Positions 5,644 to 7,289 of a stretch of 31,638 nucleotides of DNA are shown in pieces. The stretch is from an uncultured Anaerolineaceae bacterium (lineage in GTDB: Bacteria > Chloroflexota > Anaerolineae > Anaerolineales > E44-bin32): NCBI GenBank assembly GCA_964420755.1, contig CAYQUY010000001.1, positions 1 through 31,638 of the forward strand, read 5' to 3'. Under the pieces are notes generated by a model. That model did no database searches, had not been told where the DNA came from, and saw only the letters and a program-made list of their open reading frames with translations. Within the stretch, counting starts at the first letter, position 1. The number at the start of each line of letters is the position of its first letter. The position numbers and the translations under genes are program-made.

Positions 5644-5744
5644 GCCTAACGGCAGCAAGCTCAGCCGCCTGGCCAGCCCAAGGCCAGTTTCGCGGTGAAA
5701 CCAGATGCCGGGCTGGCCAGGTCGGCTCCAGAGAGCTGTTACGC
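5644..5744 (-). mobile_element. attC site (site B, 101 nt, intact)
   Basis: Minus strand GCGTAAC-AGCTC-TCTGGAGC-CG-A-CCTGGCCAGCCC...GGGCTGGCCAGG-CG-GCTGAGC-TTGCTGCC-GTTAGGC. Perfect 12-bp stem (5668-79/5710-21), an extrahelical base at 5722 in the canonical CCGAC position, and the upstream gene's TAA (5739-41) inside R''. Confidence 0.9.
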
Positions 5745-6470
5745 GCCCGAGCGATCCGACTTGGTGCCTTTGGATCCGGCCAGAGACCAGAAGAGTCCCT
5801 TCACGTACGCCTCCCCCTTGTCCCTTGTACGGAGGAAGAAGGCAATGCTCGCCGCAAGCTGCGTTGCTGGCAGGAGCCAGAAAGCAGGGCTGAGGTTGTT
5901 AGGGGTGAGGGGCCTGGCGACAGTCGCGAAAGCGCCAGCGAAGAGGACAAGGGCGAGGTTCCTATACAGGGAATAGAAGACGTTCTGTGTGTGCGCCTTT
6001 ACGGCGAGACCCTCGTCTTGAGTGACTGCGTCCGCGACCCGATAGATGGCGTGCGAGAGAGCCAGGGTGGTCTTGGGCGCGGAATGTGCGCGAGGAGTGT
6101 CGTTGGAGAGCGGGGCTAGTGCCGCCCGGGCGAAACCGAGTCTGTTGGCCGCAGCGGCAACAAACAGACTGTGGCCGGCGGAAGTGAGGCGGCCGAAGGA
6201 CTCGACGAGGAAGATCTCCGAGAACAAGTGTCTGTGCCAGAACGTGAGGCGGAGAAGAGGTTCTACTGTGATCTTGGAGAGGAACTGGACCAGATTGCCT
6301 ACGACCAAGGCGATAGAGACATATACGATGGGTCCAAGGATTGGGCTTGAGAAGAGGGCACTCTGGCTGGCATAAACCCCAGGGAAGAGCACTGAGATGC
6401 CCCAGAGTGCGACAATGCCGGGGATGAGGTTTGCGAGCGTGTCGAAGTAGGAGAGCTTGTCCATGGGCAT
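5739..6470 (-). CDS. Multi-pass membrane protein (putative effector), translationally coupled to the MBL hydrolase
   Basis: About 4 hydrophobic segments, in two pairs around a soluble loop; N-terminal YFDTLANLIPG; ATG abuts the upstream TAG (TAG-ATG at 6473-6468). Confidence 0.75.
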   Translation of the reverse strand: MPMDKLSYFDTLANLIPGIVALWGISVLFPGVYASQSALFSSPILGPIVYVSIALVVGNLVQFLSKITVEPLLRLTFWHRHLFSEIFLVESFGRLTSAGHSLFVAAAANRLGFARAALAPLSNDTPRAHSAPKTTLALSHAIYRVADAVTQDEGLAVKAHTQNVFYSLYRNLALVLFAGAFATVARPLTPNNLSPAFWLLPATQLAASIAFFLRTRDKGEAYVKGLFWSLAGSKGTKSDRSGA

Positions 6471-7289
6471 CTAGAGGCCTGTTGAAAGTGACCAGCCTCC
6501 ATCCTCCTTAAGTGTCAGCCGCATCGTGCCCTTTTCTTGTGTCGTGAACGGCTTGTTGCCTTGCGTCGATCCGGAGGAGTACTTCTCGTAGAGCTCCAGC
6601 GCCTTCTTATCTGGCAGCCCGAAGTCGTTAGGGCCAACCGACACAAGCGTCATTGCTGGGGCGATAGCGGAGATGTGGGCGGTGTAGTACTGCTTGGTGT
6701 CGGCGGGGTCGTCGAAGAAGGTGATGGATCCGTGATGCGCGGCGAGCAGAATCGACGAGCTCAGGGAGTCCTTGTCGTAGAAGGTGAGGATCTTCTCCTT
6801 CCAGGGGCGGTAATCAGTGTCTCCGGCAAGCATCGCAGAGGAGCCCGCATATTCAATCTTGAGAACTAGACTCTGCGGGTTTGGGTCCGAGTAGTCTGAC
6901 CAAGCCGAGTTGAGGCATCTGAGTTTCGCGTCCCCGTACGTCCAGAACTTCCTAGCCTCAATGTCCTTGCTGCCCACGGTGCGGCGGAGGTCCATGTAGT
7001 CGCGGTATTCGGGCGAGTCGGTGGTCGTGCCAGGTACTCCTGGGTCCCAAATGGTCTTGATGGGGTGAGCTCCATGAAGGATCTTGATCCCCCTCATGTG
7101 GTCGGCGTCGCGGTGGGAATTGATGAAGACGTCTATTGAAGAGCCTCGGCCCAGGACCGCCTTCGCGTAGTCCATGACTCGTTGCCTGTTGTCGGACGTT
7201 ATGTTGCAGTCGCAGACCAATTTGGTGCCTTCTGGCATGAGCACTATGGTCATGTTGCCGATGCCGACGTCGACGAAATGGATTTCCAT
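6471..7289 (-). CDS. ComEC/Rec2-type MBL-fold metallo-hydrolase
   Basis: MEIHFVDVG.G, SHRDADHMRG, SLVLKIEY, MLAGD, AHHGS and VSVG motifs; GGGGAGG RBS before ATG 7289; no ComEC membrane domain. Confidence 0.85.
   Translation of the reverse strand: MEIHFVDVGIGNMTIVLMPEGTKLVCDCNITSDNRQRVMDYAKAVLGRGSSIDVFINSHRDADHMRGIKILHGAHPIKTIWDPGVPGTTTDSPEYRDYMDLRRTVGSKDIEARKFWTYGDAKLRCLNSAWSDYSDPNPQSLVLKIEYAGSSAMLAGDTDYRPWKEKILTFYDKDSLSSSILLAAHHGSITFFDDPADTKQYYTAHISAIAPAMTLVSVGPNDFGLPDKKALELYEKYSSGSTQGNKPFTTQEKGTMRLTLKEDGGWSLSTGL

Follow-up and report, generated by a model that had tools for sequence, protein, structure and literature searches.

In the 31,638-nt stretch of DNA that was analyzed here (the window; positions 1 to 31,638 of contig CAYQUY010000001.1, assembly GCA_964420755.1, an uncultured Anaerolineaceae bacterium), two adjoining genes on the minus strand encode a metallo-beta-lactamase (MBL)-fold hydrolase of the ComEC type and a four-helix membrane protein which, judged by its sequence relatives, is a member of the Csx27 superfamily without being Csx27 proper. 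The two genes form a near-obligate pair across many bacterial phyla and archaea, and in other genomes the pair is linked to cap2_3, a gene of a validated anti-phage system. We consider the pair to be a defence-type module directed against phages or other incoming DNA, a reading to which we give a probability of roughly 0.6, and the copy in the window to be a further, minimal two-gene form of an association that has already been catalogued. The features of the pair and its immediate borders are as follows.

6471..7289, minus strand: gene of the MBL-fold hydrolase, an open reading frame (ORF) of 272 aa with its ATG at 7289 and its TAG at 6473..6471.
7295..7300, minus strand: ribosome-binding site GGGAGG, 5 nt 5' of the MBL ATG, read in the sequence.
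7098..7115, minus strand: codons of the HxDxDH metal motif (H59-R60-D61-A62-D63-H64), read in the sequence.
5739..6470, minus strand: gene of the membrane protein, an ORF of 243 aa (241 aa if the start is at 6464).
5644..5744, minus strand: attC-like imperfect hairpin at the 3' end of the two-gene cassette, from sequence and fold.
7341..7688, minus strand: upstream non-coding region, with GTTAAGT at 7345..7339 and no attC-like fold.

The initial annotation had described two genes between 5739 and 7289 that abut as TAG-ATG with no attC between them, and that encode a ComEC-type MBL hydrolase and a protein with about four transmembrane (TM) helices acting jointly as one unit. All of this was borne out by the analyses given here, beginning with the ORFs themselves: the first in-frame ATG of the membrane gene, at 6470, directly abuts the TAG of the MBL gene. 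A longer GTG start at 7340 was considered for the MBL gene and rejected, given that the 26 aligned homologues all begin MEIHF. For the membrane gene, the second ATG at 6464 (MDKLSYFD) is probably the true start, because three of four close homologues and the protein's own database record (241 aa) begin there, which would leave a 6-nt spacer after the MBL stop codon. With an intergenic gap of either 0 or 6 nt there is no room between the genes for an attC site or a promoter, and translation of the membrane gene is probably coupled to that of the MBL gene. Transcription of the pair must start from a promoter in the upstream non-coding region (7341..7688); a simple consensus scan for sigma-70-like promoters upstream of the pair returned none under its rules.

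In order to determine whether the two genes belong together, a genome scan was carried out with one genome per species, yielding 68 loci from many bacterial phyla and archaea that encode an MBL relative (29-67% identity). Hidden Markov models (HMMs) were built from the first-seen downstream membrane proteins and used in a six-frame search of all 68 loci. A membrane-family gene was present near the MBL relative in 58 of the 68. In 48 it was directly adjacent on the same strand (29 downstream and 19 upstream, the 19 upstream partners all being outside the HMM training set), in 8 it was on the same strand at a distance of 0.7-2.8 kb, and in 2 it was adjacent on the opposite strand. No membrane gene was found in the remaining 10 loci, 4 of which are truncated matches or contig ends. 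Where the two genes are separated, at least five of the eight loci have either a second MBL-fold gene (L007, L031, L041) or an insertion sequence (IS) transposase (L018, L026) in between. Viewed from the other side, close homologues of the membrane protein come after an MBL gene in L004, L089, L090 and L091/L092, while in L001-L003 they follow a cap2_3-like protein at its JAB end; the metagenome scan made from the membrane-protein side returned 12 loci only. Since a partner lies nearby in 58 of 68 loci, and in 48 of these is the immediate same-strand neighbour in one order or the other, the pairing is far beyond chance, and there is strong support for a single unit whose two genes function jointly; the lack of co-occurrence that would have spoken against the initial annotation was not seen. 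A complex prediction for the two proteins (0.00 versus a mark of 0.32) was counted neither for nor against binding. As to the two transposase-split copies, an IS66-family transposase (L018:7752-9344) and a DDE_Tnp_1 transposase (L026:4480-5613) lie between the MBL gene and its membrane partner, and these copies have probably been inactivated or at least uncoupled.

The hydrolase was assigned to the ComEC type based on agreement between sequence and fold. Its match to the Pfam family Lactamase_B is weak (1.3e-6), and positions 443-654 of the 663 in the NCBIfam ComEC/Rec2 model TIGR00361, the C-terminal MBL domain, align to the entire protein at 2.8e-11. A profile of 27 homologues gave ComEC MBL domains as its best sequence matches in the Protein Data Bank (PDB). 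Consistent with this, the top fold match of its AlphaFold (AF2) model (mean predicted confidence, pLDDT, 89.9) was the ComEC beta-lactamase-like domain 9ic4 (TM-score 0.80, E 2e-17), followed in places two to four by the pneumococcal phosphorylcholine esterase Pce/CbpE (E 5e-11 to 1e-9, TM-score 0.66-0.70). The metal site is intact: residues H59, R60, D63, H64, D157, H185 and H186 are invariant among the 27 homologues and D61 and A62 are nearly so, and the HxDxDH motif is what we take to be the ComEC-type variant of HxHxDH. The enzyme thus belongs to the family of ComEC-type metal-dependent hydrolases and is a predicted nuclease, with DNA as its presumed substrate. It shares the MBL fold and the HxDxDH-type motif with ComEC/Rec2 (TIGR00361; 9ic4, 30bt, 9vc6), which is also its best match by sequence as well as by structure. 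In contrast to ComEC, which carries a fused multi-TM competence domain and an N-terminal OB domain, it is a stand-alone protein of 272 aa consisting of the MBL domain alone, and its membrane partner is encoded by a separate gene and has a predicted fold unlike that of the ComEC structures in the PDB. No signal peptide was detected and the enzyme is predicted to be cytoplasmic. Its C-terminus is ...NQ in 22 of the 27 homologues and ...TGL in the window copy, with no C-terminal glycine tail. The enzyme has 693 homologues, the best of them at 55-71% identity and spread over many phyla, with archaeal copies at 47-50%; the relatives identified in plasmid and phage collections were all below 30% identity, and these collections are uninformative on the subfamily of the window.

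For the membrane protein, no Pfam family was identified, and its own matches to named models are limited to the N-terminal hairpin: PADLOC gave Csx27 at 1.5e-4 (residues 3-71), PDC-M48A at 7e-4 (residues 3-80) and a further weak match of 'tm_4' to the N-terminus, and the NCBIfam model CAS_Csx27 matched the first hairpin only (5.7e-3, 16.7 bits against a cut-off of 65). The relationship became apparent through its relatives. Along its entire length it shares 40% identity with the membrane partner in locus L005, which in turn matches Csx27 from end to end (residues 1-231 versus model positions 1-199/206, 4.8e-12), and among 85 aligned family members the PADLOC Csx27 model matched 80 (best 2.6e-21) and the NCBIfam CAS_Csx27 model 66 (best 1.4e-16). 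Because of the L005 link and these matches, we assign the membrane protein to the Csx27 superfamily, an assignment that rests on sequence comparison. The marks of Csx27 proper, which are a score above the equivalog cut-off together with an adjoining cas13b gene and CRISPR array, were absent, and no Cas13b-like ORF was found among the genes of the window. Three other close relatives were identified in a large protein database (43-57% identity), and a profile search of 1.84 billion representatives returned 1,294 relatives, of which 212 had E <= 1e-10.

The AF2 model of the membrane protein, calculated with the 85-row alignment, was of high confidence (pLDDT 92, predicted TM-score 0.87) and shows the predicted 2+2 arrangement of four TM helices around a middle part that is expected of the Csx27 superfamily, with membrane-length helices at residues 8-28, 45-77, 157-185 and 195-232 and a helical middle domain of ~90 residues. 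Because the positive charges are concentrated in the middle domain (9) and the tail (6), with 0-1 in the short loops, the middle domain and the C-terminus should lie in the cytoplasm, on the same side as the enzyme. The near-invariant residues of the family are D10, P17, G18, G58, S84, L88, Y166 and R170. Structure searches with the model gave little to build on: a PDB Foldseek search returned nothing at E <= 0.001 (the best matches being flagellar stator subunits, E 1.3), VIA-align against 48,161 chains returned helical hairpins only (Z <= 6.3), the clusters of the AlphaFold database (AFDB) gave uncharacterized proteins and one non-significant row to an S-2TM effector (E 0.085, TM-score 0.46), and the ESM Atlas gave unnamed clusters only. 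A comparison with the known membrane effectors HalA, S-4TM, PycTM and Cap15 had been proposed in the initial annotation, and the fold searches show no relationship to them.

The initial annotation did not recognize the pair as a named system; the association is, however, on record. Csx27 has been placed in a large family of four-TM proteins (Makarova et al. 2019, FEMS Microbiol Lett 366:fnz088, as relayed in PMC7642515 and PMC8209922) that is encoded together with ComEC-like transformation components, multidomain proteins of ubiquitin-like systems and WYL proteins (as relayed in PMC7642515, PMC8209922 and bioRxiv 10.1101/2021.11.02.466367), and a channel for single-stranded DNA (ssDNA) was proposed for the family (Makarova et al. 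2019, as relayed in PMC7642515). The window protein resembles this family in its four predicted TM helices and its length (the family being ~200-250 aa), and the operons with ComEC-like enzymes and with E2/E1/JAB proteins were both found again in our loci; it differs in that the window has neither Cas13b nor a CRISPR array. A sister pair is listed by PADLOC as PDC-M48, one of 145 candidate systems (PDC) that were selected for lying within BREX, DISARM or type I restriction-modification (RM) loci (bioRxiv 10.1101/2024.01.29.577857). PDC-M48 is likewise a two-gene unit of a small multi-TM protein and an MBL-fold protein, and its models match both window proteins, although weakly (PDC-M48B to the MBL at 1e-8 over residues 2-242, PDC-M48A to the membrane protein as given above). 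In locus L019 a PDC-M48A protein (a partner of ~170 aa, 5e-65) adjoins an MBL that is 53% identical to that of the window. The differences are that PDC-M48A is shorter (~165 aa with three TM helices, versus ~240 aa and four in the window partner) and that the PDC-M48B models represent another MBL subfamily than the window's. Based on these precedents the pairing should be regarded as already catalogued (Makarova et al. 2019; PDC-M48), with the window holding a further copy in the minimal two-gene form, since neither cap2_3 nor a second MBL is present.

A connection to immunity exists through 6A-MBL, which is cited as a tested anti-phage system of Pseudomonas aeruginosa and as a defence against jumbo phages (van den Berg et al. 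2024, Cell Host Microbe 32:1427, as relayed in PMC13276650, PMC13700489 and bioRxiv 10.1101/2025.09.30.679545). In L005, L013 and L017 the genes upstream of the pair scored 567-660 bits on NF058523, 'anti-phage 6A-MBL system cap2_3', against a cut-off of 320, and consist of an E2 of family A, a ThiF-type E1 and JAB. The MBLs in these loci are 55-67% identical to that of the window, and the Csx27-like membrane gene stands after the MBL in L005 and L017 and between cap2_3 and the MBL in L013. The cap2_3 profile matched about 10 of the 68 loci, as well as partial genes in L001-L003. Because the MBLs of L005 and L013 score just 57-58 bits on the model of the 6A-MBL enzyme, we view the window-type MBL and its membrane partner as an add-on or alternative module in those cap2_3 operons and not as the catalogued enzyme. 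The two kinds of enzyme have in common that they are MBL-fold proteins of the ComEC-like branch, and differ in that the family of the window MBL mostly ends in ...NQ, and the window copy in ...TGL, and not in glycine.

The distribution of the pair is patchy. The membrane gene was not found in three genomes of the same genus, and among 36 genomes of the same family there was one weak N-terminal match only. Because MBLs of 55-71% identity occur in distant phyla while the pair is absent from the close relatives searched, sequence distribution identifies it as an accessory, horizontally acquired module. Elsewhere the pair is flanked in individual cases by genes for restriction enzymes, AbiH, a KAP NTPase or recombinases.

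Taken as a defence module, the pair would act through a cytoplasmic MBL hydrolase working jointly with a Csx27-superfamily protein of the inner membrane. The hydrolase would be the catalytic effector, a predicted DNase acting on incoming phage or other DNA, and the membrane protein would position or control it at the inner face of the membrane; the pair would represent the minimal form of a widespread cassette that elsewhere occurs with a second MBL or downstream of cap2_3. The defence role itself is favoured by the linkage in other genomes to the validated defence gene cap2_3 and to PDC candidates from BREX and RM loci. The division of labour within the pair, with the hydrolase as effector and the membrane protein localizing or gating it, is a tentative proposal that we hold with less confidence than the defence role, and is favoured by the invariance of the catalytic residues. 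Direct contact between the two proteins, and the choice of which of them would kill or protect, are likewise put forward as suggestions. We also speculate, as a doubtful extension, that the pair could be a self-sufficient immune system with a mechanism not described before and with no need for a ubiquitin-like regulator. In such a 'reverse ComEC', the place where foreign DNA passes the inner membrane would be marked or formed by the Csx27-like protein, which would deliver this DNA to the ComEC-type nuclease, and phage or plasmid DNA would be destroyed on entry.

It is important to note that several observations weigh against a defence role or against the part proposed for either protein. No cap2_3 gene lies beside the pair in the window, and a search of the 81.65% complete genome gave no Prok-E2_A, which is a weak negative given that control genomes were also without a match. 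The window MBL reaches 48.6 bits on the 346-position model of the 6A-MBL enzyme (NF058524), in two short stretches and against a cut-off of 220. PDC-M48 is itself only a phage-defence candidate, as is the two-gene form. Csx27 has been reported to repress Cas13b and not to kill (PMC8209922). The flanks of the pair in other genomes are often ordinary housekeeping genes, and the Pce/CbpE fold matches of the enzyme leave substrates other than DNA possible.

The initial annotation had proposed a defence role by analogy with the nucleotide-signal systems CBASS, Pycsar and Hailong, in which an enzyme is coupled to a membrane effector. The defence part of that proposal remains plausible in view of the PDC-M48 models, the 6A-MBL link, the patchy spread and the defence-like neighbours. 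The analogy was not supported: neither protein matches components of such systems in PADLOC, Pfam or NCBIfam, there is no cyclase or NTase, no recognizable ligand-binding domain was found in the membrane protein and there was no significant match to the fold of a known membrane effector. The suggestion that the enzyme makes a signal was not supported either, the enzyme being of the ComEC nuclease type.

An alternative, which follows the reading of the initial annotation, is that the membrane protein is the killer, acting as a pore or ion channel through which the membrane collapses, with the MBL as its sensor or trigger. The MBL would either produce a signal, with DNA or nucleotides as the source, or keep the membrane protein inactive. 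Small multi-TM proteins serve as effectors in several defence systems, and the occurrence of the membrane family with two MBL subfamilies, with cap2_3 and possibly with SIR2 would fit a shared effector. Csx28 provides an example of a protein that forms a pore (bioRxiv 10.1101/2021.11.02.466367), and the weak AFDB row to an S-2TM effector points in the same direction. We nevertheless regard this alternative as unlikely, given that no significant fold match to solved or named membrane effectors and no ligand-binding domain were found, that a ComEC-type enzyme with a complete metal site looks like an effector itself, and that the role reported for Csx27 is that of a repressor of Cas13b interference and not of a toxin (PMC8209922); the complex prediction was uninformative in this respect as well.

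Less probable again is that the pair is a split, minimal ComEC-like device, with a channel and a strand-degrading nuclease, which serves nutrition or competence and not immunity. ComEC itself joins a membrane domain to an MBL domain, and it is the MBL domain of ComEC to which the enzyme is closest in both sequence and fold; the ssDNA channel predicted for the Csx27 family in the account cited above (PMC7642515) would also suit DNA uptake. Against this, the membrane model is unlike the full-length structures of ComEC that the PDB contains, the window showed neither pilus nor ComEA genes, and the patchy, cassette-borne and cap2_3-linked occurrence of the pair is the pattern of conflict genes and not that of housekeeping uptake. 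Finally, a non-immune role in which the enzyme would be a phosphodiesterase acting on an envelope component (a head group of the phosphocholine or teichoic-acid type) that is presented or transported by the membrane protein is suggested by the Pce/CbpE fold matches and by cell-wall genes among some flanks in other genomes, and is the least probable of the alternatives, as a signal peptide is lacking in the enzyme, the membrane protein has its soluble parts on the cytoplasmic side, ComEC is the clearly better fold match (TM-score 0.80 versus 0.67) and the family is linked with cap2_3 and PADLOC candidates.

As candidate defence cassettes go, the pair is one of the more widespread: its enzyme family comprises hundreds of clusters (55-71% identity) in different bacterial phyla and its membrane family ~1,300 representative clusters. 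The pair joins three published threads, namely Csx27 of type VI-B CRISPR systems, the ubiquitin-like 6A-MBL system and PDC-M48 of PADLOC. The window does not reveal a new kind of system and we consider it moderately interesting and not surprising. What it offers is a clean two-gene form, with neither cap2_3 nor a second MBL, in an array of attC-like cassettes in a Chloroflexota-type metagenome genome, and this minimal form is convenient as a construct for asking whether the pair works alone. The wide spread of the cassette makes a bench test worthwhile.

Variants of the cassette were apparent among the other loci. In approximately 20 loci a second MBL-fold gene encoding ~350-370 aa stands beside the pair. 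Such three-gene variants include L007, L031, L038, L039, L052, L055, L006, L011 and L067, and their second MBL is closer to Avs1a and ComEC-type models. In L003 (positions 1-2241 of a metagenome contig, GCA_040960995.1) the membrane gene overlaps the stop codon of a cap2_3-like JAB gene, and a 352-aa gene with a weak precomputed SIR2_2 match takes the place of the MBL after the membrane gene. When this 352-aa gene was compared by sequence with solved structures, SIR2 was not confirmed, and we see in L003 a weak hint that the effector may have been swapped, from MBL to SIR2, in the same scaffold. In L034 (3168-5608) a cap2_3-like gene lies upstream of the MBL in at least four consecutive reading-frame pieces, and this locus is probably a decayed operon of the 6A-MBL type.

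The pair in the window ends in an imperfect hairpin of 101 nt with extrahelical bases (minimum free energy as DNA -40.4 kcal/mol, z -5.2), which looks like an attC site. An R''-like GCGTAAC overlaps the stop codon of the membrane gene and an R' GTTAGGC lies at the far end of the hairpin. The GCGTAAC is one base off the consensus RYYYAAC, and the likeness to attC was judged by sequence and fold. A 21-nt arm motif of the hairpin recurs at 1085-1105 (family D11). No attC-like fold was detected in the 350 nt upstream of the pair (z +1.15), nor in the stretch 7330-7530. The possibility that the pair is an integron cassette in general was rejected, as none of 21 other loci has an attC-like hairpin or core sites 3' of the pair, and because these 21 genomes have no such element the cassette setting is considered local to the window.

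No integron integrase was identified in the window, and in the same genome only sub-threshold IntI-like fragments were detected, on other contigs. The best of these, at the end of a short contig (C318:3177-3404, locus L074), covers positions 56-131 of the integron-integrase model at 86 bits, against a cut-off of 265. It could be an ordinary tyrosine recombinase or else the integrase that the cassette array lacks.

At 188..7340 lies a series of genes on the same strand, with the pair at its head and structured spacers between its members. Upstream of the pair, the next gene encodes a 5'-nucleotidase/metallophosphoesterase. Further along the series are a DUF3800 protein, a 270-aa protein and the following two genes.

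4350-5615, minus strand: gene of a 421-aa protein, directly downstream of the hairpin, with no Pfam, NCBIfam or PADLOC match.
2463-4169, minus strand: gene of a P-loop ATPase (568 aa) that belongs to the Sll1717 family (NF047389; 254 bits, cut-off 75).

A 40-nt direct repeat, for which there is no obvious explanation, lies across the junction of the genes for the Sll1717-type ATPase and the DUF3800 protein, its two copies (2316-2355 and 2400-2439) being 95% identical and 84 nt apart. The Sll1717-type ATPase weakly matches the PADLOC candidate PDC-M28C (1.4e-8), and given this match we regard its gene as another cassette of the defence-candidate type.

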